From Dehalococcoidales bacterium (GTDB lineage Bacteria > Chloroflexota > Dehalococcoidia > Dehalococcoidales > Fen-1064), in NCBI GenBank assembly GCA_016783135.1, contig JADHXC010000004.1, positions 2,798-66,797 of the forward strand: a stretch of 64,000 nt of DNA, written 5' to 3'. A model generated the notes under the pieces. It made no database searches. It had not been told where the DNA came from and saw only the letters and a list, made by a program, of their open reading frames with translations. Positions within the stretch are counted from its first letter, which is position 1; each line of letters begins with the position of its first letter. Position numbers and translations under genes: made by a program. Shown here piece by piece: positions 8,182-52,255 of this stretch.

Positions 8182-8257
8182 ATAGACTGGTCGATTGAAT
8201 CGGACTGACAACCCCGGCATGTCATATCAGGTGTCCGGTACAGGGAGGGGAAGAACC

Positions 8258-8896
8258 ATGACGGACCTGGTGGAAATCACCCGCAGCCTGGTGGCGATGG
8301 ACATCGAACGGACTGAAGAGCTGACCAGGGCGGCAATAGCTGCCGGTATACCGGCCAGTGAGATACTGGAGAAGGGCCTTATCACCGGGATGCAGACCGT
8401 AGGTGAACAGTTTGAGGCCGGGGAAATCTTCCTGCCCGAACTGCTGATGTCGGGAGAGGCAATGAAGGCCGCCCTCAATCATCTGAAACCCCTGCTCACC
8501 GCTCAGCCCGGCGGCCGGCGCTTCGCCGGTAAGGCAGCCATCGGCACTGTCCAGGGGGATATCCATGACATCGGCAAGAACATCATCATCATGATGCTGG
8601 AAGGTAACGGCTGGGAGGTAACCGACCTCGGTGTTGACGTATCTCCCGAGGACTTTTGCACAGCGGTCAGAGAAAACAATTTCCAGGTCCTCGGGTTATC
8701 CGCCCTGCTGACGATGACCATGCCCAATCAGACCCGCACAATCGAAGCCTTGAAAGCTGCGGGACTGAGGGACAGGGTCAAGGTAGCCATCGGAGGGGCT
8801 GTCTGCACACAGGCCTTCGCCGACCAGATAGGAGCGGACTGCTATGCTGCCGACGCCGCTGACGCAGCGCGGAAGTTCGCTGAGCTGGTCTCGTAA
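8258..8896 (+). CDS. Cobalamin-binding corrinoid protein (methyltransferase cognate, MtaC/MtbC-like)
   Basis: The B12-binding signature GDIHDIGKNI (DxHxxG) is present, along with the SALLT and GG motifs. The ATG at 8258 is preceded by GGAGGGG. The ORF-track start at 8195 lacks an RBS. Confidence 0.85.
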   Translation: MTDLVEITRSLVAMDIERTEELTRAAIAAGIPASEILEKGLITGMQTVGEQFEAGEIFLPELLMSGEAMKAALNHLKPLLTAQPGGRRFAGKAAIGTVQGDIHDIGKNIIIMMLEGNGWEVTDLGVDVSPEDFCTAVRENNFQVLGLSALLTMTMPNQTRTIEALKAAGLRDRVKVAIGGAVCTQAFADQIGADCYAADAADAARKFAELVS

Positions 8897-8939
8897 CTGG
8901 CAGTCACCATTGGTAGATTCCTTCCTGACGAGGTGATAT

Positions 8940-9983
8940 ATGACCGGTATGACAGGTGTTGAGAGGATTGTGAAGGCACTCCGGCTCGAGGAGCCGGACC
9001 GGATCCCCTTTATCGAGCCACCCAACGCAACCATCAGGGAACAACTGCTCCCTAACGCTTCGGTCTACGATACCATCGAGCACTTCGACCTTGACGGGAC
9101 TGACCTCGATGACCGGGGTTACCCCGGCTACCTGACCGAGAAGGTGGACGCGAATCACTTCCGCAACCAGTGGGGAACGGTGGTGCGTACCATCGCCGGT
9201 ACGTTACCTCATCCCGTCGAACCGGCCATCAAGTCGGAGAAAGACCTGGAGACCTGGTCACTGCCCGACCCCGATGACCCGGCCCGGTACAACAGGATTC
9301 GAGAGATGGTCAGACGCTATAAGGGGCAGCGGGCCATAATCGCGTCTTTCGCCGACCCCTTCAATGTGGCCAACGAGATCCGCGGTGCGACCAACCACTA
9401 CATGGACTTCGTGCGCAATCCCGACCTCGTGGACCGGCTTGCCGACCTTATCAAGGACTACTACATGAAGTACATGCGGAACTGCATAGAGGTTGGTGTT
9501 GACGCTATCTGGGTCAAGGGTGACTACGCAACCACGAAGTGGCCCATGCTTTCCAGGGAACACTTCGTCCGCCATGTCATTCCCGTGCTTAAAGACCTGG
9601 TTGACGAAGCAAAGAGCCTCGGTGTCTTCGTGATGAAGCATACCGACGGCAATATCTATCCGATACTCGACCTGATTGTGGATACCGGCATCCACGGTCT
9701 GCACCCGATAGACCCCAACGCCGGCATGGACCTCGGTGACGTCAAGGAGAAGTACGGCCACCGAATCTGCCTCATGGGCAACGTGGACTGTGCCTACGTC
9801 CTTACCTGGGGTACCGTGGAAGAGGTGCGTGAAGACGTCAGGCGCTGCATCCGGCAGGCGGCGAAGGGTGGTGGCTACATCTGCATGTCCAGCAACTCCA
9901 TCCATCCGGCAGTCAAGCCGGAGAACTACGCCGAGATGGTGAGGGCAGTCCACGAGTTGGGACAGTATCCCATCTCCATCTAG
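8940..9983 (+). CDS. Uroporphyrinogen-decarboxylase (URO-D) family methyltransferase (MtaA/MtbA-like, corrinoid-dependent)
   Basis: 347 aa. It has a URO-D-like layout (ERIVKAL..EEPDRIPF ... HTDGNI..ILD ... LHPIDP) and is immediately downstream of the corrinoid protein. Confidence 0.8.
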   Translation: MTGMTGVERIVKALRLEEPDRIPFIEPPNATIREQLLPNASVYDTIEHFDLDGTDLDDRGYPGYLTEKVDANHFRNQWGTVVRTIAGTLPHPVEPAIKSEKDLETWSLPDPDDPARYNRIREMVRRYKGQRAIIASFADPFNVANEIRGATNHYMDFVRNPDLVDRLADLIKDYYMKYMRNCIEVGVDAIWVKGDYATTKWPMLSREHFVRHVIPVLKDLVDEAKSLGVFVMKHTDGNIYPILDLIVDTGIHGLHPIDPNAGMDLGDVKEKYGHRICLMGNVDCAYVLTWGTVEEVREDVRRCIRQAAKGGGYICMSSNSIHPAVKPENYAEMVRAVHELGQYPISI

Positions 9984-35126: not shown

Positions 35127-36668
35127 ATGATGGGATTGAAGTCTGGCAAAGAAGTCAGCGAAGGCTTCTTCGATACCATAATAGATACCGGGGCCGGGTC
35201 ACTACTGGGCGCGGTGGGCCACCTTCTCAACGAGCGGGGGGTTCAGGCATACCTGGTAGGTGGTTTTGTCCGTGACGTGTTACTGCACCGTCGTACCGCT
35301 GATATTGATATTGCCGTGGCCTCTGATGCGCTGGAGGTTGCCAGGATGGTAGCTGGCGCGCTGGGTGGCAGGTTTGTTACACTGGACGAGGAAAACGGGG
35401 TAGCACGGATAATACTGGTGGGTGGTGGCGTATTCCCGGGTGAAAACCAGTGGCAGGTAGATTTCTCCACATTCCGTGGTAGTATCGAAGAGGACCTGGC
35501 GCGGCGTGATTTTACGGTAGATGCGATGGCAGTTGAACTCAACCAAATAACTACAACCGACCGGGCAGTACGGCTGGTGGACCCATTCGGAGGTCTTTTC
35601 GGCCTCCGAATGGGCATCATCCGGAGTGTTTCCGAGACCGCCTTTGAGTCCGATGCCGTTCGTCTGCTGCGAGCCGTGCGTCTGGCTGCCGAGCTTGGCT
35701 TCAGTATCGATAGTGTTACCGAAGCCCAGGTCCAGCACCATGCCGGCCTCATCGCCGGTGTTGCCGGGGAACGTATCAGGGAAGAGTTGCTGCGCCTCCT
35801 GGCCGTTCCCGGCAGTGGGCATTTCCTGGTCCACCTGGATAGCCTGGGTCTGCTTACAGCACTGATTCCGGAACTAGCCGCCGCCAGAGGCGTGGAACAG
35901 CCCGGAGAGCACTTCTGGGACATCTTCGAGCATTCTCTGAAGACCGTGCTCGCAGTCGACTTCTTGCTGCGGGAAGGGTCATGGGAGTATGGCGATGATG
36001 GGCTTTTAGCGACGGTCCCGTGGTCATCGGAGCTGACCGCGCACTTTGGCCTGGAGGTCGGCAGCGGGAGCACCGGAAGGTCGCTCCTGAAGCTGGCGGC
36101 ACTATTGCATGATATTGCCAAGCCGCAGACCAGAAACATTGATGAAGACGGGCGGATGCGCTTTCTGGGGCATGCCGGAGAGGGGGCCTCAGTAGCTGTC
36201 GGTGTCCTGGAGCGGCTGAGGTTCAGCAAGCGGGAGATAAAATTCGTGGAGGCAATAGTGCTGCACCACCTGCGCCCGATGCAGATGAGTCAGGTCGGGC
36301 TTCCCAGCCGGCGAGCGGTCTACCGTTATTTCCGCGATACCGGGGATGCTGCTATTGAGATACTCTTCCTTAGCCTGGCTGACCATCTTGCCACGCGGGG
36401 CCCGCACCTGGAGATGGCTGGCTGGCAGGAGCATATCGATATCGTGGAATACGTTCTCGCTCAGCATTTCGAGCAGGAGAGCCGGCCGCAGCCGGTTAAG
36501 CTGATAGATGGCCATGACCTGATAAACACCTTCGGCATGAGTCCGGGAGTCGGGCTTGGCAAACTCCTCGAGGCGGTAAGGGAGGCCCGGGCCGCCGGGG
36601 AAGTAACCACACGACAGGAAGCACTGGAATTCGTCCGCAGCCATTTATCTACTGAGGAAAGAGGATAG
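35127..36668 (+). CDS. cca: CCA tRNA nucleotidyltransferase family protein with C-terminal HD domain
   Basis: 513 aa. The head domain has YLVGGFVRDVLL...DIDIA and RDFT.NA. The HD region has LLHDIAKP...GH. Confidence 0.85.
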   Translation: MMGLKSGKEVSEGFFDTIIDTGAGSLLGAVGHLLNERGVQAYLVGGFVRDVLLHRRTADIDIAVASDALEVARMVAGALGGRFVTLDEENGVARIILVGGGVFPGENQWQVDFSTFRGSIEEDLARRDFTVDAMAVELNQITTTDRAVRLVDPFGGLFGLRMGIIRSVSETAFESDAVRLLRAVRLAAELGFSIDSVTEAQVQHHAGLIAGVAGERIREELLRLLAVPGSGHFLVHLDSLGLLTALIPELAAARGVEQPGEHFWDIFEHSLKTVLAVDFLLREGSWEYGDDGLLATVPWSSELTAHFGLEVGSGSTGRSLLKLAALLHDIAKPQTRNIDEDGRMRFLGHAGEGASVAVGVLERLRFSKREIKFVEAIVLHHLRPMQMSQVGLPSRRAVYRYFRDTGDAAIEILFLSLADHLATRGPHLEMAGWQEHIDIVEYVLAQHFEQESRPQPVKLIDGHDLINTFGMSPGVGLGKLLEAVREARAAGEVTTRQEALEFVRSHLSTEERG

Positions 36669-38153
36669 ATGCTCAGAAGAAACAGCTGGGTTCTCATCAC
36701 CGTTATAGTAGTGTTCGCTCTGGCCCTCTGGGTGTTGCTCCCTATCGAGGGAGAAAGATTGGGGCGTCAGGGAATCCAGTTCGGGCTTGACCTTAAGGGT
36801 GGCGTCCGTCTTGTCTACCAGGCTGATTTATCAGGAGTGACGCCAGGTACTGAGGACGAGATAATGGACGGTGTGTTGGCCGTTATTGCCAACCGCATCA
36901 ATCCGCTGGGTGTCACCGAACCTGACTTCCACAGGCGTGGTGACGACCAGATAGTGGTTGAACTCCCCGGGACTGACATTACCGATATCCAGAAGGAACG
37001 CATCGGACGTACCGCGTTACTCGGGTTCCGCGAACGGGTGGAGGTGCCCATCGGGGGTGAGGAAGTAGAGGTTGAAGTAGGGACTGAGGAGGAAGGTGAG
37101 GAGCCGGTTGACGGCGGAGAAGAGGAACAGGCCGAAGAAGGCGAAGGCGAGGTAGAAGAGCCGGTCGATGAGGGAGAGGAAGAGGAAAGTGAGCCGGTAA
37201 CGATATGGATGTGGGTACCGGCCACGGGCACGGTTAACGGTGAGGAGAAGGCGCTCAACAGCAGCTACTTCAAAGAGAACACCTATATCGACCGCGGACA
37301 GTTCGGTGAGATAGAACTGCACTTTGAGTGGAACGAGGAGGGAATAGAACTATCCGAGCAAATTACCGGTCGACTGGTGGTAGGCAATCAGCCGCTGGGC
37401 ATCTTCGAGGGGGACCAGCCTCTGCTCGGTGATGACGGCCAGCCGATTGCTCCCAGAGTCCAGGCGGTAATCACAGATAGAGGCATCATTACAGGGTTGA
37501 GCATGACGGAAGCCACAGAGCTTTCCAAGCAGTTAAACGCCGGGCGTCTGCCGGTACCGCTTACCAGAGTGGGGGAAATGACGGTTAAGCCCAAGCTCGG
37601 GGAGGATTTTGTTGACCTCAGTGTCCGGGCAGGTTTAATTGGCATTGCTCTGGTGATGCTCTTCATGATTACGTACTACCGTATCCCCGGACTCATGGCC
37701 AGCCTGGCACTGGTCTTCTATGGGGTGATAGTATTGGCACTATTTAAGCTGCTGGGGGTTACACTTACCCTGGCGGGTATCGGTGGTTTCGTCCTGTCCA
37801 TTGGTATGGCTGTAGATGCCAATGTGCTCATCTTCGAACGAATGAAGGAGGAGTTCCGGATGGGCCGGGCATTAGGTGCCGCTACTGAAGCCGGGTTCAA
37901 CCGTGCCTGGACAGCGATAAGAGACAGCAATATCACTACAATGATTGTCTGCGGTATTCTCATCTGGGTGGGTGGGTCTATTGCCTTCGGCGGCTCGGTG
38001 CAGGGTTTCGGTGTGACTCTACTGATTGGCGTGACAGTCAGCATGATTACGGCCATCGTCGTGACCAGGACGTTCCTGCGACTTTTCATAGGAACCAATC
38101 TGGCAAAGCAAACACGTCTGTTCACCATATACTCAGGAAAGAAAGATGTTTGA
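36669..38153 (+). CDS. secD: Protein translocase subunit SecD (with acidic insert)
   Basis: 494 aa. LGLDLKGG and the C-terminal 6-TM domain are present. A ~45-aa Glu-rich insert is encoded at about nt 37056-37196. Confidence 0.9.
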   Translation: MLRRNSWVLITVIVVFALALWVLLPIEGERLGRQGIQFGLDLKGGVRLVYQADLSGVTPGTEDEIMDGVLAVIANRINPLGVTEPDFHRRGDDQIVVELPGTDITDIQKERIGRTALLGFRERVEVPIGGEEVEVEVGTEEEGEEPVDGGEEEQAEEGEGEVEEPVDEGEEEESEPVTIWMWVPATGTVNGEEKALNSSYFKENTYIDRGQFGEIELHFEWNEEGIELSEQITGRLVVGNQPLGIFEGDQPLLGDDGQPIAPRVQAVITDRGIITGLSMTEATELSKQLNAGRLPVPLTRVGEMTVKPKLGEDFVDLSVRAGLIGIALVMLFMITYYRIPGLMASLALVFYGVIVLALFKLLGVTLTLAGIGGFVLSIGMAVDANVLIFERMKEEFRMGRALGAATEAGFNRAWTAIRDSNITTMIVCGILIWVGGSIAFGGSVQGFGVTLLIGVTVSMITAIVVTRTFLRLFIGTNLAKQTRLFTIYSGKKDV

Positions 38154-39996: not shown

Positions 39997-40030
39997 GGGC
40001 CTACACCCTACGGCAGTAGGGGCCTACACC
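39988..40030. repeat. Tandem duplication of a 20-nt unit (cggcagtaggggcctacacc, period 23)
   Basis: Two exact copies lie at 39988-40007 and 40011-40030. They straddle the stop codons of the convergent CDF and LysE genes. Confidence 0.9.
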
Positions 40031-40662
40031 GCCTGCTGGATACCGGACACGATAAACCAACCCCCGAAGCCCACCAGCAGCAGGCTGCACGCGATAAACA
40101 ACCCTTCCTGGAACCGTTTCCCCCACAGCGCCTGCGTCCTGTATATCAGGACGGATACAATCGTGAGCCACACCAGGTCGCATGACCAGTGGACCGCGGT
40201 GAACGCCACCAGCCCGGCAGCACCGTAGTCGACCACCTTCATGATGAGCATACTGCCCACGGTCGCCCACCACAGCAGGAAAAACGGGTTGAGGGCGCTG
40301 AGGACGATGCCGGCAGTAATCGCGTTGTAGGACAGGTCCCGGCCCTGATGGACCACCTCGGTGCGGGCGCGGAACATGCCGATTCCGAGCCAGATAATCA
40401 TCGCTCCCCCGGCTATGCTCAACACGAGTTGCACCGTGGTATTCTCAAAGAACCGGGCAAAGCCGAAGTATATCAGCAGTATCAGAGGGACCTCTATCAC
40501 GGCGTGGCCGATGGCTATCAGTGGCCCTGCCCAGGGACTGCGGTAGCTCTTGGCCACGGTGATAGCAAACATCGGTCCGGGCATCATCACGCCGGACAGT
40601 GAAATTACGGCTACACTCAGCAGGACTGGCAGCAAGGCGGCACCTCTCCCAGATTGTAGCAT
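40024..40662 (-). CDS. LysE/RhtB family amino-acid exporter
   Basis: 212 aa, 6 TM helices. PGP.F motif near the N-terminus (MPGPMFAITV). Confidence 0.85.
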   Translation of the reverse strand: MLQSGRGAALLPVLLSVAVISLSGVMMPGPMFAITVAKSYRSPWAGPLIAIGHAVIEVPLILLIYFGFARFFENTTVQLVLSIAGGAMIIWLGIGMFRARTEVVHQGRDLSYNAITAGIVLSALNPFFLLWWATVGSMLIMKVVDYGAAGLVAFTAVHWSCDLVWLTIVSVLIYRTQALWGKRFQEGLFIACSLLLVGFGGWFIVSGIQQAV

Positions 40663-40770
40663 ACTGACTTTATTTCACACACTAAGGTTATACGTTCTCC
40701 TTGAGTTCACCGGCTTGATTCACTATACTTGCGGTATAGTACGGGTTGGCATTCCTTGGGGGTGGCCGAT

Positions 40771-41964
40771 ATGTCCCTGGACCTTACGAAGCTCATTTCC
40801 CAGGTGGGCGACATGGTGGCTCGGCTGAAGGCCAGAGGCCGGGAGCGTCAGGAACGCCTTGAGCATGCCCGGGAGGCCCTCGGCAGGTATGCCGGTGACG
40901 TGGATGCCCTCAGAAACAAGATTGATGCCAGCCGTACCACCTGGCTGGTGGCCGGTCTGGTGGATGGGCTTGACGGGCATCACGGGGCGCCTGCCACGCC
41001 CGCCGACTTCACCGTGGTTGCCACTGACGGCTCCCATATCGACGTTGACCGGCACCGTGCCGCCCGGTGCTACCTGATAAACATCGGCTCGGTGGTGCTG
41101 CGCTACGGTACCAGTCCGGCAGCCGTTCTGGACAGCCAGCCCAGTCTCTATTCCGGGGATGAGGACCTGGTGATTGCCGCACCCGGAGTGCGCGGTCGTG
41201 AGCAGGTGATTGAGGGTGCGCTCCTGGGCATGAAGCGTGCCGTCGATGAAGCCCGTCGTCTGTCCGAGTTGGCGGCCGAGACGTCAACGGATAGCCCGAC
41301 CGTGGCACTGCTCGACGGCTCTCTGATACTCTGGGGACTGGAGCCATACCCCGAGTTCGTCACCGAGGAGTTGCTGGACAAAGGGTTCCTGAGGTGTCTG
41401 GAGAGACTGCGCAAGCTGAGCGGGGAGAGACAGCTTGCTGTGGCGAGCTACATCAGCTTTCCCCGCAGTATGGATGTCGTCAATGCCCTGCGGGTGGCGC
41501 TCTGCCCCCGGGAGACAGTCGACAGCGACCGCTGCCTGACCTGTGAGACCAGGGAATGCGACGCCGTGGCCGGTGTTCGCGACCGCGAGCTTTTTGCCGG
41601 GCTGCTTGAACCGGGGGAGAGGTCGGACACCTTCATCAGCTCCTCCAAAATCCAGAGTCGGTACGGCCCCCACCAGGTCCACTTCTTTTATCTGAACGTG
41701 GATAACGAGGTTGCCCGGATTGAGGTGCCTCACTGGGTGGCAACCAGCGAAAGTCTGCTTGGCCTTACCCACAGCCTTATCCTTGACCAGTGCCGGCGCG
41801 GACACGGCTACCCGGTGGTGCTGAGTGAGGCCCACGAGAAGGCGGTTGTCACCGGCGCCGACGCCGCCAGCTTCTGGCGGCTGGTGGAATCGTCCCTAGT
41901 GGAGGAAAAACTGCCCACCACCGGCTCGGCAAAGAGCTGGAGCAAGAGAACGAGGTGGGTCTAG
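40771..41964 (+). CDS. nurA: NurA-domain 5'-3' nuclease
   Basis: VVATDGSHIDVDRH (catalytic DGS) and VALLDGSLILWGL are present, with a later ..GYPVVLSEAHEKAVV.. block. Start chosen at ATG 40771; the ORF track gives 40729. Confidence 0.75.
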   Translation: MSLDLTKLISQVGDMVARLKARGRERQERLEHAREALGRYAGDVDALRNKIDASRTTWLVAGLVDGLDGHHGAPATPADFTVVATDGSHIDVDRHRAARCYLINIGSVVLRYGTSPAAVLDSQPSLYSGDEDLVIAAPGVRGREQVIEGALLGMKRAVDEARRLSELAAETSTDSPTVALLDGSLILWGLEPYPEFVTEELLDKGFLRCLERLRKLSGERQLAVASYISFPRSMDVVNALRVALCPRETVDSDRCLTCETRECDAVAGVRDRELFAGLLEPGERSDTFISSSKIQSRYGPHQVHFFYLNVDNEVARIEVPHWVATSESLLGLTHSLILDQCRRGHGYPVVLSEAHEKAVVTGADAASFWRLVESSLVEEKLPTTGSAKSWSKRTRWV

Positions 41965-42018
41965 CCATTACTTACGGAAGTACATGCTCGTAGTAAGGAG
42001 AGAACGGCTGTAGACGAC

Positions 42019-42639
42019 TTGAAGAATCTCATGCCGGTGGGGAAATCAGGAGTAAAACCTGCTGCCAGGGTCTTATCCCGGGCGTTTCATGATTCCCCGA
42101 TATTTACCCATCTGCTTCCGGACCCTGTGGAAAGGAAGAACAAGCTGCACTACCTTTTCGAAATAGTGGTTCGCGATAGTATTCGCCACGGGGAGGTCTA
42201 CGCGACTTCTCAGGACCTGGAAGGTATAGCCGTGTGGATACCCTCGGAAAGGGGCGAGAGTATGTCGCCAGGGAGAATGATACGGTCTGGCGCATTGTCT
42301 CTCCCATTCAGATTCGGAAGAGACTTCTCGTCAAGGCAGGGTCCTGTTACCGCTTCTATTGACTCGGCGCACAAGCGTCATGCACCTTTCCGCCACTGGT
42401 TTCTCCAGGCTATCGGTGTAGACCCCGCTTATCAGGGAAAGGGGTATGCCAGTAGACTGTTGAAACCCATGCTTGCCAGAATAGACAGGGAGAATATGCC
42501 CTGCTATCTTGATACCGAAGAAGAGAAGAATGTTTCCATTTACCAGCATTACAACTTCAAGGTACTTGAGGAAGCGGAAATCCCGAGCACCGATATTGTT
42601 CTCCGGGCCATGTTGAGGGAGAAGTCCGGTCAGCAATAG
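42019..42639 (+). CDS. GNAT family N-acetyltransferase
   Basis: 206 aa. The acetyl-CoA site is IGVDPAYQGKGYASRLL. Confidence 0.85.
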   Translation: MKNLMPVGKSGVKPAARVLSRAFHDSPIFTHLLPDPVERKNKLHYLFEIVVRDSIRHGEVYATSQDLEGIAVWIPSERGESMSPGRMIRSGALSLPFRFGRDFSSRQGPVTASIDSAHKRHAPFRHWFLQAIGVDPAYQGKGYASRLLKPMLARIDRENMPCYLDTEEEKNVSIYQHYNFKVLEEAEIPSTDIVLRAMLREKSGQQ

Positions 42640-42755
42640 CACCCTGTTGCACCGTTTGACCGTGTGGGTATACAATACTCACCAAATAACAAGCATCAAA
42701 TTCCAAAACCCAAAGGGGCGGGTATACAATACGATGGAGGCATATTTGTAGCGGT

Positions 42756-43160
42756 ATGCGAAGAAGAGCCACTGTTATCGTAGTGAAGGACGGGAAGGCA
42801 CTGCTGATAAAGGGCAGAGGGCAGCATCGCTGGTCTTTCCCGGGTGGGAGAATAGAAAGAGGTGAGACGTTTGCCGTTACGGCGGCAAGGGAGTTGTACG
42901 AGGAGCTGGGATTGCGTGCGGCCAGGGTGACCCGCCTCCGCGATGGTGATTTCGCCACGTCTCAGAATCAGCACAAAGCGTTTCTTGTGGAAACTGACGA
43001 TGAACCACACGTCCTGGAGCGTAGCATAGACACGTTCACGTGGTGGGACATGAAGACCCCCGTACCAGTATTTGAGCACGTTACAGCGGTAGTCGGTGCC
43101 TACCATCGTCAAGCGCACACCAGAAGGGAGTCGAAGAGGGGCGAAGCCCTTCTTACATAA
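42756..43160 (+). CDS. NUDIX hydrolase
   Basis: 134 aa. The Nudix box is GGRIERGETFAVTAARELYEELGL. The last few codons run into the hairpin repeat. Confidence 0.85.
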   Translation: MRRRATVIVVKDGKALLIKGRGQHRWSFPGGRIERGETFAVTAARELYEELGLRAARVTRLRDGDFATSQNQHKAFLVETDDEPHVLERSIDTFTWWDMKTPVPVFEHVTAVVGAYHRQAHTRRESKRGEALLT

Positions 43161-43210
43161 ATCTTCCCCTTCCCCTGACAGGGGAAGGGGATTAAGGGGA
43201 TAGGGTACCT
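43129..43210 (+). repeat. Compound G/C-run hairpin element, copy B
   Basis: Hairpin 1 is gaagagggg-cgaa-gcccttctt (imperfect). Hairpin 2 is tccccttcccct-gac-aggggaagggga (43165-43191, 12 bp perfect). The tail is ttaaggggatagggtacc. It parallels 23541-23615. Confidence 0.85.
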
Positions 43211-43266
43211 TCACAGGAAAAAGGATATATCCCTGGAATTATGAATTATACCAGGAGGAAACGTTA

Positions 43267-43341
43267 ATGGGCACCAAGGGTAGAAAGAACGTCAAGAAAT
43301 CCAAGCAGAAAAAGGAGAAGAAGGAAGAGAAGAAGAAGTAG
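43267..43341 (+). CDS. Candidate 24-aa lysine-rich micro-protein (MGTKGRKNVKKSKQKKEKKEEKKK)
   Basis: ATG lies 8 nt after AGGAGG. The stop is 10 nt before the next ORF, whose own RBS is weak, which suggests translational coupling. Confidence 0.3.
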   Translation: MGTKGRKNVKKSKQKKEKKEEKKK

Positions 43342-43351
43342 AGAACCGGGA

Positions 43352-43954
43352 ATGACTGAATCAGCGGAAAGAGTCGGTGAGGTAATCGAGGCCGGCACCA
43401 CCCAGTTCGTCGCCGAGTGCTACGAGCTCTACCAGCCGCCGCCATTGGGCAGCCTGGTGCAGGTGGGCGATGCCGGAGAAGAGCTTCTCGGAGTTGTCTA
43501 TTATGCCACCACGGCCAGCCTGGAGCCGGGACGGCGTCCCATCGCCCGCGGTAAGGATGAGGTTTCCGAGGAGGCGGTCTACCAGGCCAGCCCCCAACTT
43601 GAAAAGCTGTTCCGTAGTGAGTTCAGCGCGTTAGTAGTGGGACACGCCGAGGGGCGTAAGCTACTCCAGTACCTTCCGGCGCGGCCGGCCCGCATCCACA
43701 GCTTCGTCTACCGGTGCCCCCCGGACAGCGTCAGGGACTTCAGCACTTCATTTGATTTCCTGAGCCTGCTACTCAGCACAGCGCTACCGGTATCGGTGGA
43801 GGAACTGGTCGCGGCAACCCTGCGCCAGATGAGCGCGGCCCACGAGGACAACCGGGGCTTCCTCGTTGCGGCGGGGAAGGAACTGGCGACGCTCCTCAGT
43901 GGCGAGTACGGCCGGCTCAGGGCGATTCTGGAGAGGATTGTGCCGCCGGAATAG
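43352..43954 (+). CDS. Stand-alone HAS-barrel-like protein (resembles the N-terminal region of HerA)
   Basis: 200 aa. VGEVIEAGTTQFVAECYE...LGSLVQVGD...LLGVVYYATT ... P.RIHSFVYRCPPDSVRDF mirrors the layout of the N-terminal ~130 aa of the HerA ORF at 44439. Confidence 0.55.
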   Translation: MTESAERVGEVIEAGTTQFVAECYELYQPPPLGSLVQVGDAGEELLGVVYYATTASLEPGRRPIARGKDEVSEEAVYQASPQLEKLFRSEFSALVVGHAEGRKLLQYLPARPARIHSFVYRCPPDSVRDFSTSFDFLSLLLSTALPVSVEELVAATLRQMSAAHEDNRGFLVAAGKELATLLSGEYGRLRAILERIVPPE

Positions 43955-43970
43955 GAGTGCTGTCTGTGTA

Positions 43971-44435
43971 ATGAACGATTTCAGGTTCAATGACTACGGA
44001 GTACTGACTGACGGCGAGATAGAACTCGTTGTCAGTCAGAAACGCCCCGCCAATCCACAGAAGGGGTATCTACCGATGTACGAGTTTGATATTCACCTCC
44101 CCGGTAAGCCCGGGGCGATTGGCGGCGTCAGCCTGCGGATTGGGAATACGGAACACGTGATAAAGTATGCCGGTCACATCGGGTACGGGATTAACGAGAG
44201 ATACCGGGGCAACCGCTATGCCGCCAAGTCCTGCAATCTCGTCAGGCAGGTCGCTCTAGACCACGGCCACAATGTATTGTGGATAACCTGCAACCCTGAC
44301 AACCATCCGTCGCGCAGGACGTGCGAAATACTTGGCTGTGAATTTGTTGAGATTGTTGACCTGCCGGAGGATACCGACATGTACCGGGAGGGTGAAAGGC
44401 AGAAGTGCCGCTACAGGTGGGACCTGGAGGAGTAG
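43971..44435 (+). CDS. GNAT family N-acetyltransferase
   Basis: 154 aa from MNDFRF. The motif is GYGINERYRGNRYAAKS. The ORF-track start at 43866 would overlap the preceding gene by 89 nt. Confidence 0.8.
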   Translation: MNDFRFNDYGVLTDGEIELVVSQKRPANPQKGYLPMYEFDIHLPGKPGAIGGVSLRIGNTEHVIKYAGHIGYGINERYRGNRYAAKSCNLVRQVALDHGHNVLWITCNPDNHPSRRTCEILGCEFVEIVDLPEDTDMYREGERQKCRYRWDLEE

Positions 44436-44438
44436 GTA

Positions 44439-46034
44439 GTGACTGAAGAGAATATCAATCAGCGGCTCGGTATCGTTGTTTCTGGTTCGGTAGACAAAGG
44501 CACTGAGGTCAGGCTGGATAGCGCGGCTTCGGTGGAGGATATGGTCGTCGGGCGCTATGTCACTATTGAGGGACGGCAGCGGCGTTTCTTCGGCATGATT
44601 ACCGATATCAGCCTGGGCGTGACCGACCCCGAACTTACCGTGGCCCCGCCCCGTGAGGTCGATTCCTTCCTGTCCGAGGTGCTCAGCGGGACGGCAACCT
44701 ACGCGACTCTCCACGTCCTGCCCATGCTGACGATGGGTATCGAGGGGCCGGAGCCAGTGAAGACCGTTCCCAGCCATTTCTCGGCGGTGAACCTGGCTTC
44801 GGACACGGATATGGAGCTTATCTTCGGTGAAGAGGACGATACCCGCTTCAACGTCGGTAACCCGCTGGATATGGAGACCAAACTGTGCCTCGACCTGCCG
44901 GAATTTGTCAAGCGCTCCAACGGCATCTTCGGCAAGAGCGGCACCGGCAAGACCTTCCTGACCCGGATTCTGCTCATCGGTATGCTCCAGAAGAGCAAGG
45001 CGGTTAACCTGATATTCGACATGCACAACGAGTACGGCTGGGAGGGGAGCAGTGAGGAGGGCCAGCGTAAGGTCAAGGCATTGAAGCAGCTATTCCCGGA
45101 CCAGGTAGCCGTGTTTACCCTGGATGAAGAGAACTCGCGACGCCGGGGTGTGAGTACCGACTTCGTGGTAAGGATAGGGTATGACGAGATTGAGCCGGAA
45201 GACATTGTATTGCTCCGCCAGACGCTGAACCTCACCGAGCCGGCGGTTGAGGCGGTCTATCAACTGCATCGCAGGTTCCGTGGTGAGTGGATAGAGAGGA
45301 CGCTTGCCCTGCAGGACTCCGATGAAATACCGGAAGGTCTGAACATACACGAAAGCACCCTGAAGAACCTCCAGAGAGGTCTCCAGACAATCCGGCGGCT
45401 GCCCTTCATCCAGCCCCACGTGCCCACCAATGCTGTCCGCACCATGCTGGAATACCTCGACCGCGGCATGAACGTCGTCCTTGAGTTCGGCCGGTACCGC
45501 GATATCACCGCCTATATGCTGGTGGCCAACATGCTCGCACGGCGCATCTATGCCCAGTACCAGGAGAGGATGGAGCGGGCGATGGGTGAGGGTCTTGCCC
45601 AGCCGAATCCCCTGGTTATCACCATTGAGGAAGCGCACAAGTTCCTCAACCGGGAGGTTGCCAGCCAGGCTATCTTCGGCACAATCGCCCGTGAGATGCG
45701 CAAGTATAATGTCAGTCTGCTGGTAATCGACCAGAGACCGAGCGGCATCGACGAAGAGGTTATGTCCCAGATGGGCACCAAGATAACCTGCCTGCTCGAC
45801 AACGAGAGGGATATCGACAGCGTGCTTGCCGGTGTTGCCGGGAAGAATGAGCTGAAGTCGGTGCTCTCCAGACTGGCCCCGAAGCGGCAGGCGCTCATCT
45901 TCGGTCATGCCGTGCCGATGCCGGTGGCGTTCCAGCCCCTGGAGTACGGCTCGGCGGAGTCCTACAAACGCTTTATGCCCGCCGGAGATACCGGCCAGCG
46001 GGCGCAGAAGGACATCGAGGAGCTCTGGGACTGA
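44439..46034 (+). CDS. herA: HerA-like (DUF87) hexameric ATPase/translocase
   Basis: 531 aa with GTG start after GGAGGAG. There is an N-terminal HAS barrel, Walker A GIFGKSGTGKTF, Walker B ITIEEAHKF, and LLVIDQRPS. Confidence 0.85.
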   Translation: MTEENINQRLGIVVSGSVDKGTEVRLDSAASVEDMVVGRYVTIEGRQRRFFGMITDISLGVTDPELTVAPPREVDSFLSEVLSGTATYATLHVLPMLTMGIEGPEPVKTVPSHFSAVNLASDTDMELIFGEEDDTRFNVGNPLDMETKLCLDLPEFVKRSNGIFGKSGTGKTFLTRILLIGMLQKSKAVNLIFDMHNEYGWEGSSEEGQRKVKALKQLFPDQVAVFTLDEENSRRRGVSTDFVVRIGYDEIEPEDIVLLRQTLNLTEPAVEAVYQLHRRFRGEWIERTLALQDSDEIPEGLNIHESTLKNLQRGLQTIRRLPFIQPHVPTNAVRTMLEYLDRGMNVVLEFGRYRDITAYMLVANMLARRIYAQYQERMERAMGEGLAQPNPLVITIEEAHKFLNREVASQAIFGTIAREMRKYNVSLLVIDQRPSGIDEEVMSQMGTKITCLLDNERDIDSVLAGVAGKNELKSVLSRLAPKRQALIFGHAVPMPVAFQPLEYGSAESYKRFMPAGDTGQRAQKDIEELWD

Positions 46035-46035
46035 T

Positions 46036-46647
46036 ATGTCTCCCCCTGGCTTCGAGCGAGTCGAGCTTGTAGGTGACAGGGTGCGGCTTCGTCCCGCGCG
46101 ACCCACTGATGCTGCGGACGCCTACCGTCTCGTGTCCGACGAAGAGGTGCTATCACGCCTGTTGTGGGAGGGCCCAGCGGACGAAGCAGAGATGTCCGAT
46201 GTCTTCCGCCGCTGGCAGGCAGGACTGGAGACCGGCGAAGACTACAACCTGGCCATTGATCGTACCGACAACCCTGGACTGATAGGATGCATCGGCTCTC
46301 GCCTTAGAGAGCACCCTTTGCAGGCCAACGTCGGCTACTGGCTGGGTGCGCCCTACTGGAACCGGGGCTACATGACCGAGGCGATTCGCCTCATCTGCCA
46401 CTTCTCCTTTGAGTATCTCGGTGTAGTTCGCGCGCATGCGGGTGTATTTGTCGGGAATGTGGGCAGCAGACGGGCGCTGGAGAAGAACGGTTTTTCCCTG
46501 GACGGTACCTTGAGAAGCGACGTTATCAAGCGTGGGGAGTGGCGGGACGAATGGTTTCTCAGCCTGCTGCGCTCCGAGTGGGAGGGAAACCGGGAGAGGT
46601 TTCTTCCCCGGCAGGAGGATATTGTCGTAATGAGGAGCGGCGAATGA
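46036..46647 (+). CDS. GNAT family N-acetyltransferase (RimJ/RimL-like)
   Basis: 203 aa from MSPPGFERVELVGDRVRLRPARPTDA.. The motif is WNRGYMTEA. It starts 1 nt after the herA stop. Confidence 0.85.
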   Translation: MSPPGFERVELVGDRVRLRPARPTDAADAYRLVSDEEVLSRLLWEGPADEAEMSDVFRRWQAGLETGEDYNLAIDRTDNPGLIGCIGSRLREHPLQANVGYWLGAPYWNRGYMTEAIRLICHFSFEYLGVVRAHAGVFVGNVGSRRALEKNGFSLDGTLRSDVIKRGEWRDEWFLSLLRSEWEGNRERFLPRQEDIVVMRSGE

Positions 46648-47522
46648 CGCCTGCCAGTCGCCCCCGACCGGAAAGGGAATCGCTTCCCGTGCAGACCAGG
46701 CGACTGCTACGTCATGCCGGTCTGCGGGCAAGGAAGGGACTGGGACAGCACTTCCTCATCGATGAGAGTGTACTGCGACTTATTATCAAGACTGCCGAGC
46801 TTGCTTCGACCGATGTTGTTGTTGAGATTGGGCCTGGGCTGGGTGTCCTGACCCGTGAGTTGGCTGAAAGGTCCGGCCGGGTAATTGCCGTCGAGCTGGA
46901 CGACAGGCTTGCCGCAGTCCTGAAGGAGTCCCTGGCTGCTTTCGATAATGTTACCATAATCAACGGCGATATCCTCAAGATAGACCCGGCAGTCCTGCTG
47001 CGGGAAACCGGGGGGCCTGAGTACAAGGTGGTGGCCAATCTGCCCTACTACATCACCTCGCCGGTACTGCGACACTTCCTGGAGGCCTCGACAAGGCCGA
47101 GGACGATGGTGGTGATGGTGCAGAAGGAGGTGGCCGAAGTCATTGCCGCAAAACCGGGCCGGATGAGCCTGCTCAGTGTGGGCGTGCAGCTCTATGGTGA
47201 GCCGGAGATTGTCGGCCACGTAGCGGCAGAGTGCTTCTACCCGGTGCCGGAGGTTGATTCCGCGATACTGAAGATAAGCGTGTCCGCCGAACCAGGGGTA
47301 GCAGTGCGTGACGAGGCGGGTTTCTTCAGTGTGGTGCGGGCCGGGTTCAGCGCCTCCCGTAAGCAACTGGTCAACTCGCTGGTGCGGGGACTGGGATTGC
47401 CCAGAGCAGAGGTGCTGCGTATGCTGGAGGAGTCCGGAATCGAGCCGAGGCGGCGGGCGGAGACCCTGTCCCTTGAAGAGTGGTCACAACTGTGGAAGGT
47501 ATATTCCGGAACTTACTACTGA
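46644..47522 (+). CDS. rsmA: 16S rRNA (adenine1518-N6/adenine1519-N6)-dimethyltransferase
   Basis: KGLGQHFL, VVEIGPGLGVLT and NLPYYITSP motifs are present. The ATG overlaps the stop of the upstream GNAT (ATGA). Confidence 0.92.
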   Translation: MTPASRPRPERESLPVQTRRLLRHAGLRARKGLGQHFLIDESVLRLIIKTAELASTDVVVEIGPGLGVLTRELAERSGRVIAVELDDRLAAVLKESLAAFDNVTIINGDILKIDPAVLLRETGGPEYKVVANLPYYITSPVLRHFLEASTRPRTMVVMVQKEVAEVIAAKPGRMSLLSVGVQLYGEPEIVGHVAAECFYPVPEVDSAILKISVSAEPGVAVRDEAGFFSVVRAGFSASRKQLVNSLVRGLGLPRAEVLRMLEESGIEPRRRAETLSLEEWSQLWKVYSGTYY

Positions 47523-47547
47523 AGCTATCCCAAAAAGGAGGGCGGCA

Positions 47548-48627
47548 ATGCCTAATGTTTGGAAGAAACTCTTCATAGTAGCAACAATTCTACTGGTTAC
47601 GTGCACCGCTTTCTGTGGTTCCTTCTGGTATCAGTTAGACGATACTAAAAAACAACTGGATGATACCAAAGCCCAACTGGTGAATACCAGGGTTGAATTA
47701 GATACTTCCAGAGAACAACTTGCTGAAACTAAGACCTTGCTGGATAATACTGAGGCTCAGCTGGCGGATACTGAGGCTCAACTAGCGGATACTGAAGCTC
47801 AGTTAGTGGATACTAAAGTTCAGCTGGATACCACCGAAACAGAGTTGAACGTTACCAATAATCAGCTAGTTACTATCACAGCCCAACTGCATTCCACCAA
47901 GAACGAACTTGCTTCAACTCAAAGTTATTTGGATACAGAAAAGAATGAAAACAGTCAAATGGTAAATCAGTACAGCAGCATTAGAGACCAGATTCATGTC
48001 CGGCTGGGACTAACACCACAAGACGAGCAGAGCTTTATAACCCCTGACAACTTATCAGTATCGGCAAAAGTACAGGAAATTACTGGAGGTTATTCTGAGA
48101 ACGTAAGTGAGTACTGGCGAGATTTCGAGCTATTGTATCGGTGGGTAGCAAACAACATATCATATTCTTATGACAGCTACATACCGTTCCTTCCGGAAAC
48201 CATGTCTGGTGAACTATCATGGAGTAAAGAGTGTTGGCGAACACCGGAGGAGACTCTGGAAGATGAGACCGGCGACTGTGAAGATATGGCAGTGTTACTC
48301 GCAAGCATGTTACGGGGTTATAACGAAGGAAGATATCGCGTCTGGGTCATAATAATTCATTCCAATGTCCCTGAAGTCCCGGGGCACGCAGCGGTTGCTT
48401 TCCCGGTTGCTGGCGGTAAACTCACTATTCTTGACCCGGCAGGGAATTACTATACCGGCTATCTATACGGAACTCTCCGGTCTGAGAGTACTTCTGTTGC
48501 TGTTAATCAATGGTTATCCTACTGGCAGAATGACATTCCGGGAGCAGAAATAGTCACAGCTTTCTCAGAGACTGACCATCAACAGTTTCCCAGCACAGCG
48601 GAGTTCATATCGTGGACAGAAGAATAA
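47548..48627 (+). CDS. Membrane-anchored coiled-coil protein with C-terminal transglutaminase-like cysteine-protease domain
   Basis: ATG follows AAAGGAGGG. There is an N-terminal TM helix, about 14 heptads of the DT.AQL. type, then ETGDCEDMAVLLASMLRG ... GHAAVAF ... DP (Cys-His-Asp). GC is far below the neighbours. Confidence 0.75.
   Translation: MPNVWKKLFIVATILLVTCTAFCGSFWYQLDDTKKQLDDTKAQLVNTRVELDTSREQLAETKTLLDNTEAQLADTEAQLADTEAQLVDTKVQLDTTETELNVTNNQLVTITAQLHSTKNELASTQSYLDTEKNENSQMVNQYSSIRDQIHVRLGLTPQDEQSFITPDNLSVSAKVQEITGGYSENVSEYWRDFELLYRWVANNISYSYDSYIPFLPETMSGELSWSKECWRTPEETLEDETGDCEDMAVLLASMLRGYNEGRYRVWVIIIHSNVPEVPGHAAVAFPVAGGKLTILDPAGNYYTGYLYGTLRSESTSVAVNQWLSYWQNDIPGAEIVTAFSETDHQQFPSTAEFISWTEE
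47746..47829 (+). repeat. 21-bp tandem repeat (4 near-identical units encoding [D/N]T[E/K][A/V]QL[A/V/D])
   Basis: The aatactgaggctcagctggcg-like unit is repeated at 47746, 47767, 47788 and 47809. More degenerate heptad periodicity extends over about 47635-47940. Confidence 0.9.
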
Positions 48628-48682
48628 CCCCCGTGCAAGTCTGGAGCTTGGATAAGAAGATATTTATACGAGCAGAATCACC

Positions 48683-49549
48683 ATGCTGACTTTACAGGCA
48701 CCGGCCAAGCTGAACCTGACTCTTGAAGTCATCGGCAAACGTGATGACGGCTATCACGAAATCCGCAGCGTGGTCCAGACGATAGGATTGTGCGACCGCC
48801 TCCTCTTTCAAGCCAGCCGACAAACGGAATACAGTTCAAACATGCCGGAGTGGCTCCCTGAGCAGAGCCTGGTAACTAGGGCGGTCGACCTCCTCCGCGA
48901 GGCTACCGGGTGCAACCTGGGAGTGGAGATTCAGGTCGAAAAGTACATCCCGCTGATGTCCGGTCTGGGTGGGGACAGCAGTGATGCCGCCGCCGTACTT
49001 CGCGGGCTCAACCGCTTATGGGAACTCGACCTGCCTCAGGATAAGCTGCGGGAGCTTGCATCAAGGCTGGGCTCCGATGTAGCCCTGTTCCTGTACGGAG
49101 GGACGGTCCTGATGGAGGGCCGGGGGGAGCAAGTAACACCACTACCGTCGTTGCCGACAATGTGGGTTGTCCTGGTGCTGCCGGAAATACCGCAGGAGTC
49201 AGGGAAGACCGGTCGTGCCTATGAGAGCCTTCAAGAGGCGGACTACACGGATGGTAGAGCCACCGAACGGCTGGTGGAGGTGCTGAAGACCGGCAGGGAC
49301 TTCGCCCCGTCGCTGCTATTCAACGCCTTCGAGCGTAGTGCTTATGCCGGTTCCTCGGAACTGATGGCATGCCGGGAGCGGATGCTCTCCGCCGGTGCCG
49401 ATAACGTCTACCTCGCCGGGTCAGGACCGGCGCAGTTCTGTCTCTTGAAGGAGAGGGACGGGGCTGAGGGACTGCACGACCGGTTAAGTCGGCAGGGGAT
49501 GGAGGTATATCTGGTGGAGACGCTGGCAACCGGAGAGTGGCTGAGCTAG
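48683..49549 (+). CDS. ispE: 4-diphosphocytidyl-2-C-methyl-D-erythritol kinase
   Basis: 288 aa. APAKLNL.L.V and the GHMP motif IPLMSGLGGDSSDAAA are present. Confidence 0.92.
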   Translation: MLTLQAPAKLNLTLEVIGKRDDGYHEIRSVVQTIGLCDRLLFQASRQTEYSSNMPEWLPEQSLVTRAVDLLREATGCNLGVEIQVEKYIPLMSGLGGDSSDAAAVLRGLNRLWELDLPQDKLRELASRLGSDVALFLYGGTVLMEGRGEQVTPLPSLPTMWVVLVLPEIPQESGKTGRAYESLQEADYTDGRATERLVEVLKTGRDFAPSLLFNAFERSAYAGSSELMACRERMLSAGADNVYLAGSGPAQFCLLKERDGAEGLHDRLSRQGMEVYLVETLATGEWLS

Positions 49550-50995: not shown

Positions 50996-52255
50996 TCAAC
51001 CGCGCTCCTGGAGCCACTTCGTGACCACCTCCCGTTCTTCCTGCCGGGTGGCTATCTCCCCGTCAAGCCTGGCGGCGCGCAGGCGTTCGAGGAATTCCCT
51101 CACTCCGGGGCCGGGTGCCACACCCATCTGTATCAGGCAGTCACCGGTCAGGGACGGTTTGACGTAACGCAGCCAGCCATAGAACAGCCCGATGTTCCGG
51201 CTGACTGCCGGGGAATCGGTGGCCACCGCGCTGACGAGCAGCGCCGCCGGGGCATAGCCCTGAAGAGCGGTATAGATACGGCTCGGGGCGAGATTGGCGG
51301 TAGCCAGAAGTTTAAGTTTGGTCTTGAGACGCTGACTGTCCCGCACGACCTCTGCCGACCTTCCGGGTACTCTGAGGAGTGAGATGAAGTCCTCCATCTC
51401 CTTGTCGGTCAGAGGGTATGTCAGCAAAGCCAGGTAGACGCTGGCCAGTTGTGACTCCGGTATGGTCACCTCGCGGGCCCGCTGGAACCTTGCCGAGAGC
51501 GTATGACTGGCCTTCAGTGCGGGGTGGAGTCGGGATAGCACCTTCAGTTCCTTCGCCCGCCGGAGCACTTTCTCCGGCTGTGCCTCTTTCAGGACCAGTT
51601 CCAACTCGTGCCGCACGCGGTCGCTACTGATGGTGTCCAGCATGGGTATGTCCCGGGCAAGCAGCCTGCGGGTATCCGCTTCCAACTGGAAGTCCAGCCG
51701 CTGCTCATAACGCAGGGCGCGCCAGATGCGGGTAGCATCGTCGGTGAAGCTCTTCTCGTGGAGGACACGGACCAGCCTTTTCTCCAGGTCTGCCCGGCCA
51801 CCATAGCTATCAATGAGTTCTCCGTAGCAGCCGGGATTGAGGTTAATGGCCATTGCGTTAATAGTGAAGTCGCGACGGAAGAGGTCCTCGCTCAGGGAGC
51901 CGGGGTTTACCCTCGGCAGGGCACCCGGACGGTCGTAGGTCTCGGAACGTGCCCGGGCAAAATCGATGCTCCATTTGCCCCAGCGAAGCCTGGCGGTGCC
52001 GAAGCGACGGTGCACGGTGAGTTTCCCCTGCGTAACGCTGGCTGCCTGTTGTGCCAGGGCCACGGCATCGCCTTCAACCACGAGGTCGAGGTCAAGGTTG
52101 CTGCGGTCGAGGAGAAGGTCGCGCACAACACCGCCAACAAGGTAGAGGTGATATCCCTGGTAAGCGGCAATAGCGCCCACGGCCTCCAGAAAACCGGTCA
52201 GCTCCGACGGCAGGTACTCTTTTATTCTACTCGACAGGTTCTTCGTCTCTGCCAT
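50996..52255 (-). CDS. CCA-adding/poly(A)-polymerase family tRNA nucleotidyltransferase (no HD domain)
   Basis: 419 aa. LYLVGGVVRDLLL...DLDLVVEG and RRDFTINAMA head motifs are present. It lacks the HD region seen in the paralog at 35127. Confidence 0.82.
   Translation of the reverse strand: MAETKNLSSRIKEYLPSELTGFLEAVGAIAAYQGYHLYLVGGVVRDLLLDRSNLDLDLVVEGDAVALAQQAASVTQGKLTVHRRFGTARLRWGKWSIDFARARSETYDRPGALPRVNPGSLSEDLFRRDFTINAMAINLNPGCYGELIDSYGGRADLEKRLVRVLHEKSFTDDATRIWRALRYEQRLDFQLEADTRRLLARDIPMLDTISSDRVRHELELVLKEAQPEKVLRRAKELKVLSRLHPALKASHTLSARFQRAREVTIPESQLASVYLALLTYPLTDKEMEDFISLLRVPGRSAEVVRDSQRLKTKLKLLATANLAPSRIYTALQGYAPAALLVSAVATDSPAVSRNIGLFYGWLRYVKPSLTGDCLIQMGVAPGPGVREFLERLRAARLDGEIATRQEEREVVTKWLQERG

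Follow-up and report, generated by a model that had tools for sequence, protein, structure and literature searches.

NurA and HerA form an archaeal-type machine for the resection of DNA ends. To our knowledge, work on the bacterial version has been confined to the two-protein complexes of Deinococcus and Thermus. HerA carries an N-terminal HAS barrel (PF09378), a domain that is also found at the amino terminus of the F1-ATPase α and β subunits. NurA binds HerA as a dimer in the archaeal and Deinococcus complexes, docking coaxially on the hexamer at its HAS-barrel face (PMC3326311, PMC9960219). The interface between the two proteins was mapped by removal of the HAS domain (PMC3326311), and the bacterial complex pairs negative charge on the HerA HAS surface with positive charge on the facing NurA surface (PMC9960219). 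The locus described here lies in a 64-kb stretch of a Dehalococcoidales (Chloroflexota) genome, referred to below as the window, where a series of genes runs co-directionally on the plus strand. The series includes nurA, herA and, between them, the gene for a stand-alone HAS-barrel protein designated HASp.

The Deinococcus radiodurans system (PDB 7wrw and related structures) resembles the window locus in that a NurA-domain nuclease and a HerA translocase are encoded on the chromosome (PMC9960219). Deinococcus HerA is composed of a HAS barrel, a RecA-like ATPase and a helix bundle, and its HAS face docks the NurA dimer (PMC9960219). That system is described as a two-gene operon, whereas here HASp is a third conserved gene between nurA and herA, and the two enzyme genes are separated by cargo genes over 2.5 kb. 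The spacing had been pointed out in an earlier note on this sequence, and the distance from the end of nurA to the start of herA on the same strand is 2474 nt. The sequence relation to the Deinococcus proteins is remote, with no 7wrw chain among the PDB relatives of the window HerA at E ≤ 0.001 (phmmer) and no PDB relative of NurA at E ≤ 0.01. The same phmmer comparison relates HerA to Sulfolobus 4d2i (E = 1.7e-15) and Thermococcus 9x1l (E = 8.8e-15).

The archaeal herA-mre11-rad50-nurA operon (represented by the Sulfolobus 4d2i and Thermococcus 9x1l/9x1m structures) encodes the same two enzymes. Archaeal and bacterial HerA-NurA are both described as two-protein complexes (PMC3326311, PMC9960219), and HASp would be an extra component here. 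The archaeal cluster is mirrored in other Chloroflexota, where nurA, HASp and herA are joined to mre11-rad50 (loci L090 and L092) or to mre11 (L099) in a different gene order. The window differs from it in that mre11 and rad50 are not nearby, and the Mre11 and Rad50 proteins of L090 had no tblastn match within the 64 kb. The defense systems SIR2-HerA/Nezha and DUF4297-HerA are a third point of comparison, each built on a HerA-family ATPase whose HAS barrel docks an effector. Their structures are among the HerA PDB sequence matches.

Conservation of nurA, HASp and herA

The locus was compared with 80 species-level loci around HerA homologs of 64–98% identity, all from Dehalococcoidia or Chloroflexota metagenome-assembled genomes (MAGs), and the window proteins were mapped onto them by tblastn. 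HASp is upstream of herA in every one of the 69 Dehalococcoidales loci with at least 700 nt of upstream sequence, and nurA is upstream in 31 of the 35 loci with an upstream flank of at least 6 kb. The HASp-herA distance is 47 nt or less in 65/76 loci and the two genes often overlap. Locus L076, from the cultured relative Dehalogenimonas, also carries nurA and, further on, HASp-herA. The conserved frame of the region consists of a CDF transporter gene (plus strand), LysE (minus strand), nurA (plus strand), a variable stretch and then HASp-herA (plus strand).

More distant loci contain the same three genes in a compact form. In one Dehalococcoidia locus (L083) nurA, HASp and herA are contiguous and HASp is 31% identical to the window protein. 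Elsewhere nurA and HASp overlap by 4 nt with herA following (L085), or HASp and herA overlap by 1 nt (L086). An uncultured Chloroflexota MAG (L090/L091) carries nurA-HASp-herA-mre11-rad50 in one block, a second Chloroflexota locus (L092) has the same five genes, and a third (L099) has mre11 after herA. A wider HerA scan, in which the alignment was led by a distant member, yielded 80 loci from many phyla at 49–73% identity that were then searched with HASp and NurA hidden Markov models. Compact triads were found in Latescibacterota (L104, L105, L114, L150, L170), Gemmatimonadota (L108, L144), Handelsmanbacteria (L158) and Chloroflexota (L092, L099). Of the 57 clade loci whose upstream sequence reaches 6 kb or more, 10 encode NurA together with HASp, 1 encodes HASp alone and 46 encode neither. 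None has NurA alone, meaning that a nurA adjoining herA is always accompanied by HASp within the sampled clade. HASp has retained its place between nurA and herA, where stop and start codons overlap, across at least four phyla at 22–35% identity. The ancestral layout would be a compact nurA-HASp-herA operon with such overlaps, continuing into mre11-rad50 in some Chloroflexota. Scans with two single distant proteins (P0244 and P0296) each recovered only the genome of origin.

A NurA-HASp fusion of 372 residues (P0196; L172, 3450–5167) was considered as Rosetta-stone evidence and rejected. It is most likely an assembly or frameshift artifact because it lies on a long-read contig of 2x coverage in which nurA is split and herA and its neighbors are fragmented.

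The Dehalococcoidales loci also encode a conserved lysine-rich microprotein. The window version has the sequence MGTKGRKNVKKSKQKKEKKEEKKK and an AGGAGGA Shine-Dalgarno sequence 7 nt upstream of its start. Members of the MGSKGRKNVKKPK microprotein family are 18–30 residues long and share the consensus MG[ST]KGRKNVKKPKQ...KKK. A motif search located the gene in 46 of the 80 loci. It shares the strand of herA in all of them, and where nurA and HASp were both seen it lies between the two. A GGAGG-like sequence precedes nearly all copies by a few nucleotides, and the third codon position changes synonymously (GGC/GGA/GGG/GGT, GTC/GTA/GTG/GTT, AAG/AAA) with the residues conserved. This pattern of codon variation, together with the upstream Shine-Dalgarno sequence, identifies the micro-ORF (open reading frame) as a genuine protein-coding gene on comparative grounds. 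It is absent from the non-Dehalococcoidales loci L081–L171 and has no Pfam, NCBIfam or Rfam match. An exact look-up in public protein collections returned only versions of 28–30 residues, unnamed or labeled 'hypothetical protein'; a gene of 24 codons is too short for common gene callers, and routine annotation misses it. The microprotein may bind DNA or the acidic proteins of the module. A role as a HASp leader peptide was rejected on the distance to HASp, which varies from 10 nt to ~1.4 kb with other genes sometimes in between.

HASp fold and a proposed three-protein machine

HASp scores 16.5 bits against the Pfam HAS-barrel model, under its gathering cut-off of 25.2. Some homologs pass the threshold (P0196, for example, with 27.1 bits) and several relatives carry a precomputed PF09378 match. 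More than 3150 homologs were detected at E ≤ 1e-3, all of them unnamed or 'hypothetical', and the closest 120 are without a precomputed Pfam match. Exhaustive HMMER analysis of 1.84 billion representatives placed the family in 754 clusters at 50% identity, nearly all of ~200 residues and stand-alone; it corresponds to no Pfam family. A HASp profile found nothing among PDB chain sequences (best E = 9.7).

AlphaFold2 was used to model HASp from an 88-sequence alignment. The model has a predicted local distance difference test score (pLDDT) of 96 and a predicted template-modeling score (pTM) of 0.90, and consists of a β-barrel (residues 7–121) followed by a five-helix bundle (residues 124–196). 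The 50 Foldseek matches listed from the PDB are without exception HerA-family translocases, aligned over ~126–200 columns with E-values of 2e-6 to 3e-4 and query-normalized TM-scores of ~0.36–0.49. The matches listed include Sulfolobus 4d2i, Thermococcus 9x1m, Deinococcus 7wrw, SIR2-HerA, DUF4297-HerA and TdpA. The HAS-barrel paralog that the earlier note had named is a weak call by sequence and is confirmed by structure, in that the barrel of the predicted model adopts the HAS-barrel fold. In an hhalign comparison, residues 2–143 of HASp aligned with residues 6–149 of the window HerA, an alignment that is non-significant alone (probability 3%, E = 0.015). The two HAS barrels are remote homologs and not recent duplicates. 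HASp shares the fold of PF09378 domains over residues 7–121 and differs from their known carriers in having no ATPase domain and an orphan C-terminal five-helix bundle. The bundle modeled alone reached a pLDDT of 94.7 and has no structural relative in the PDB (best E = 3.3), hence it provides no functional hint. HASp is acidic, with an isoelectric point of 4.96 compared with a family median of 5.9.

The HAS barrel was reportedly defined by Iyer et al. in 2004, in work that might mention stand-alone HAS barrels. Apart from such a possible earlier mention, searches of the open-access literature turned up no account of a stand-alone HAS-barrel partner of NurA-HerA and nothing relevant on HerA or NurA in Dehalococcoidia.

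Both enzymes of the window look catalytically competent, judged by residue conservation. The HerA Walker A residues (G165/G168/G170/K171) and its EEAH motif (E397 E398 A399 H400) are invariant in 21 sequences. NurA has a helical extension of ~80 residues ahead of the NurA domain, and its invariant residues in 18 sequences from four phyla are D86-G87 (DGS motif), E160, D182, D271 and H334. By analogy, the acidic and histidine residues are the predicted catalytic groups.

The nurA-HASp-herA locus is best seen as a three-component version of the known NurA-HerA system, in which HASp and the microprotein are widespread and uncharacterized. We assign a probability of roughly 0.7 to the reading that the window carries a chromosomal, vertically inherited module for double-strand break (DSB) end resection with three conserved proteins, NurA, HerA and HASp. 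End resection as the pathway is supported by the linkage to mre11-rad50 genes in the three Chloroflexota loci. HASp is probably the third subunit of the NurA/HerA repair machine. This is the simplest reading because HASp is an acidic, free copy of the NurA-docking domain that is encoded between the two partners, often with overlapping genes. We infer its physical association with NurA/HerA and its effect on them, since the HAS face of HerA is the NurA docking surface in the characterized complexes. The acidic HAS barrel of HASp would engage NurA or stack on the HerA HAS ring. It could sit between NurA and HerA as an adaptor or spacer ring, or act as a gate or decoy that sets when NurA couples to the motor. 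HASp would thereby couple, or limit, the feeding of translocated DNA to the nuclease. A broader proposal, which we put forward tentatively and hold at somewhat less than even odds, makes HASp an obligatory third subunit of a widespread bacterial machine (Chloroflexota, Latescibacterota, Gemmatimonadota, Handelsmanbacteria) in which NurA-HerA coupling requires a free HAS-barrel ring, with the Dehalococcoidales microprotein as a fourth accessory factor.

A strictly co-occurring third component would alter the picture of NurA-HerA outside model organisms. HASp is conserved across several phyla, is annotated just as 'hypothetical protein' and is built from the very domain that mediates HerA-NurA contact, which raises the testable question of whether a free HAS-barrel ring adapts, gates or inhibits the nuclease. 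The assignment is also relevant to annotation in the Dehalococcoidia, a class with small genomes, importance in bioremediation and a poorly defined set of DSB-repair genes.

Several observations weigh against the resection reading. The tie of HASp to NurA and HerA is one of co-location only, and HerA already has its own HAS barrel, leaving the need for a second one unexplained. Close gene spacing is common in the window and is weak functional evidence by itself, and the window nurA is probably transcribed apart from HASp-herA. Cyanobacteria, Chloroflexaceae and Herpetosiphon have solo herA orthologs of the same clade, no NurA or HASp being encoded within 8 kb of them. Distant HASp-like proteins of TM6/Dependentiae adjoin RNase HII (rnhB) and have no herA within 5–6 kb, and one Chloroflexi-type HASp family member (L089) also has no herA beside it; these cases indicate that HASp family members need not adjoin herA. 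In 51 of the 80 Dehalococcoidales loci herA is followed, within 735 nt and in the same orientation, by a gene for a patatin-like phospholipase, an arrangement that fits a non-repair reading too.

The solo herA orthologs (in the range L093–L171) are 50–57% identical to the window protein, examples being L097 of Herpetosiphon (7887–9611) and L152 of Sphaerospermopsis (7989–9719). Their neighbors are unrelated genes such as those for sigma factors and GST, and several lie near a sigma-70 gene. The TM6/Dependentiae genes (L084, 6001–6600; L088, 5001–5639) overlap the 3′ end of the RNase HII gene, with LexA-like, S6/S18 and MutL genes nearby, and for one of the proteins the source annotation reads 'HAS barrel-like protein'.

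Cargo genes and competing explanations

Three GNAT acetyltransferase genes (GNAT1–GNAT3) and a Nudix hydrolase gene are interspersed with the triad in the window, and the 16S rRNA dimethyltransferase gene rsmA follows. Their distribution in relatives is sporadic. GNAT1 has an ortholog in 1 of the 80 loci (L007, 46% identity), as does the Nudix hydrolase (L024). GNAT2 is present in 3 (L001, L014 and L035, at 60–91% identity) and GNAT3 in 4. The closest genome locus, L001, has 98% HerA identity and no GNAT3 match by tblastn; its herA-rsmA match interval of ~250 nt is insufficient for the 612-nt gene. The three GNATs are mutually non-orthologous. Between 9 and 5323 nt separate nurA from HASp (median ~1.3 kb, n = 45), and these gaps hold 102 ORFs, of which the biggest homologous cluster covers 5 loci. 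Their Pfam families are LOG/lysine-decarboxylase-like (5), 23S-rRNA-IVP (3), cNMP-binding (3), GNAT (3), HSDR_N (3), DNA methylases (N6_Mtase, N6_N4_Mtase), IS200, ADP-ribosylglycohydrolase, GyrI-like and others, with GNATs accounting for ~3 of the 81 gap ORFs scanned with Pfam. The first gene 3′ of herA, assigned in 71 loci, encodes patatin in 30, MauE/DoxX in 13, RsmA in 3 and a GNAT in 2. An rsmA gene is found somewhere downstream of herA in ~10 of the 80 loci and is accompanied in relatives by ispE and rubrerythrin.

Base composition and a predicted hairpin also set the cargo apart. The G+C content is 0.51–0.53 for GNAT1 and 0.51–0.54 for the GNAT1/Nudix DNA and, less clearly, GNAT2, compared with mostly 0.58–0.63 for the flanking core genes. 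In a repeat search, no direct repeats indicative of insertion were found on either side of the cargo genes. The perfect 13-bp inverted repeat past the Nudix gene is centered on a 1-nt loop and occurs once in the 64-kb window. This hairpin is likely a terminator or transcription-unit boundary that separates the Nudix gene from the herA string. The GNATs, the Nudix hydrolase and the rsmA linkage are, by these comparisons, lineage-specific juxtapositions in a hypervariable slot and not components of the module. In Dehalococcoidales the nurA/HASp junction, and less often the HASp/herA and herA-downstream junctions, would have become slots collecting unrelated small genes. GNAT1, Nudix, GNAT2 and GNAT3 would be the present occupants, tightly packed passengers. 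Co-directional gaps of −4 to +16 nt are here no sign of common function, a caution for annotation.

The earlier note had read these genes as decorating HerA-NurA and had named neighborhood conservation as the test. On that test HASp and the micro-ORF turned out to be conserved partners of the locus, and the acetyltransferase/Nudix-decorated module did not hold up. Functional regulation of HerA-NurA by three GNATs and a Nudix hydrolase, for example through acetylation control of end processing, would fit the co-directional genes with their short gaps on the herA side, the position of GNAT2 exactly between HASp and herA in three lineages and the Acetyltransf_9 GNAT after herA in Ca. Viridilinea (L101). 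It is nonetheless very improbable given that each gene recurs in so few loci, that GNATs rarely follow herA, that the three are mutually non-orthologous, that GNAT3 has no match in the nearest relative, that their DNA is low in G+C and that the hairpin parts Nudix from the herA string. The L101 gene (9615–10877, Ca. Viridilinea mediisalina) encodes a 421-residue Eis-like protein unrelated to the window GNATs, 3′ of a solo herA, and its placement there is probably coincidental, GNATs being common. DNA-end processing, one of the functions suggested in the earlier note, is the best reading of the locus, without the acetylation control by GNATs attached to it. A ribosome-linked function through a RimJ-like GNAT and rsmA is scarcely credible. 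It draws on the ATGA overlap of GNAT3 with rsmA and the 1-nt herA-GNAT3 gap, and is countered by GNAT3 lying below every Rim equivalog threshold (RimJ PRK10809, 23.7 bits with a cut-off of 190; RimL PRK10151, 20.3 bits with a cut-off of 184). On these scores GNAT3 is a member of the Acetyltransf_3 superfamily only; the label 'RimJ-like' holds at the superfamily level and is an over-reading beyond it. Moreover, rsmA directly follows herA in just 3 of 71 relatives. Its travel with ispE and rubrerythrin makes its proximity to herA ordinary housekeeping synteny.

Two further explanations concern the triad itself. The locus could be an anti-phage or anti-plasmid defense system in which HerA is the motor, NurA (joined by patatin in relatives) supplies the effector function and HASp serves as sensor or adaptor. 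Several HerA-driven defense systems exist and their structures are among the HASp fold matches, PADLOC gave partial HerA matches (best E = 1e-31) over the C-terminal third of the protein, and restriction-modification-like pieces (HSDR_N, N6_Mtase, N6_N4_Mtase) occur in the adjoining gap. The patatin-like phospholipases encoded after herA belong to an effector type that is common in defense systems. Such a function is quite unlikely all the same, and the defense module proposed in the earlier note is not borne out. NurA, HASp and the other neighbors have no PADLOC match, and HerA scores 79 bits against the anti-phage NCBIfam model NF042943 (cut-off 800) and 52.6 bits against NF042944 (cut-off 850). 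No SIR2 or DUF4297 domain was found by Pfam and PADLOC in the 9 proteins scanned, so the partners that define SIR2-HerA and DUF4297-HerA are missing. HASp has no match among 72,556 plasmids or 50,697 phages. The locus keeps its synteny throughout the order, pointing to vertical inheritance and away from an island-like distribution, and the triad is linked to mre11-rad50 in other Chloroflexota. Patatin is treated as order-specific synteny because neither the window nor the triads of other phyla contain it. The other explanation, that HASp is a conserved syntenic neighbor of unrelated function (for example a small oligomeric scaffold) and NurA-HerA stays two-component, is unlikely. It is favored by the HASp-like genes found without an adjacent herA in TM6/Dependentiae and L089 and by the HAS barrel that HerA already possesses. 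It does not account for a position flanked by nurA and herA, with overlapping codons, that is retained in at least four phyla despite the low identity, or for the lack of clade loci with NurA and no HASp. The sole recognizable fold of HASp is, in addition, the domain through which HerA contacts NurA.

The patatin genes are distributed over L002–L077 (examples are L008, 3945–4760; L010, 11753–12580; and L022, 11595–12386). Many of these genes overlap the stop codon of herA or are separated from it by a single small MauE/DoxX gene.

Locus layout and other features of the window

The gene calls and sequence features of the locus are collected in Table 1. The genes, starts and spacing listed in the earlier note are real by Pfam and NCBIfam matches and by recomputed intergenic gaps, which from the micro-ORF through rsmA are +10, +16, +3, +1 and −4 nt, the last being the ATGA overlap of GNAT3 and rsmA. 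The window RsmA exceeds the equivalog threshold of TIGR00755, and the Nudix hydrolase reached no NCBIfam equivalog.

Table 1. Genes and sequence features of the nurA-HASp-herA locus, in window coordinates.
Feature	Position	Strand	Description	Basis or remark
nurA	40771..41964	+	NurA-family nuclease, 397 aa	Pfam PF09376, E = 8.7e-30, residues 81–360
GNAT1	42019..42639	+	Acetyltransferase; variable cargo	Pfam Acetyltransf_1/7; alternative start, ATG at 42031
Direct repeat GGGTATACAATAC	42666–42678 and 42720–42732		Two exact 13-nt copies in the GNAT1-Nudix spacer	Repeat search
Nudix	42756..43160	+	Nudix hydrolase, 134 aa; variable cargo	Pfam NUDIX, E = 9e-17
Inverted repeat	43165..43191		Perfect 13-bp repeat, TCCCCTTCCCCTG a CAGGGGAAGGGGA	5 nt past the Nudix stop codon
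Microprotein gene	43267..43341	+	Lysine-rich microprotein, 24 aa	Motif conservation and Shine-Dalgarno sequence
HASp	43352..43954	+	Stand-alone HAS-barrel protein, 200 aa	AlphaFold2 and Foldseek; Pfam HAS-barrel sub-threshold
GNAT2	43971..44435	+	Acetyltransferase, 154 aa; cargo at the HASp-herA junction	Pfam Acetyltransf_3
herA	44439..46034	+	FtsK/HerA-type hexameric translocase ATPase, 531 aa	DUF87, E = 6.5e-30; N-terminal HAS-barrel, E = 1.4e-8
GNAT3	46036..46647	+	Acetyltransferase, 203 aa; cargo	Pfam Acetyltransf_3, E = 3e-30
rsmA (ksgA)	46644..47522	+	16S rRNA dimethyltransferase	TIGR00755, 236.5 bits, cut-off 171

The two copies of the direct repeat are 54 nt apart from start to start and contain the −10-like sequence TATACAAT; the repeat may be a duplicated promoter or operator. 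A consensus promoter and terminator scan gave no excess over the shuffled expectation, and an Rfam scan of positions 40000–49000 returned zero matches at E ≤ 1.

A gene at 47548–48627 (its ORF is listed from 47308) lies between rsmA and ispE in a low-G+C patch (0.42–0.48) and encodes a membrane-anchored coiled-coil protein with a transglutaminase-like domain (DUF553/Transglut_core). It looks like a recent insertion because ispE directly follows rsmA in relatives other than L001. The coiled coil of this protein yields spurious SMC, JetC and LmuB matches in PADLOC and NCBIfam. Upstream of the locus, a SecD-like membrane protein (36669–38153) has, from its translation, a long glutamate-rich acidic insertion (...GEEVEVEVGTEEEGEEPVDGGEEEQAEEGEGEVEEPVDEGEEEESEP...) in the periplasmic part. 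Paralogous genes for a putative CCA-adding enzyme or poly(A) polymerase flank the region on opposite strands (35127–36668, plus; 50996–52255, minus), a call that rests on GG(F/V)VRD...DxD motifs seen in the translations.

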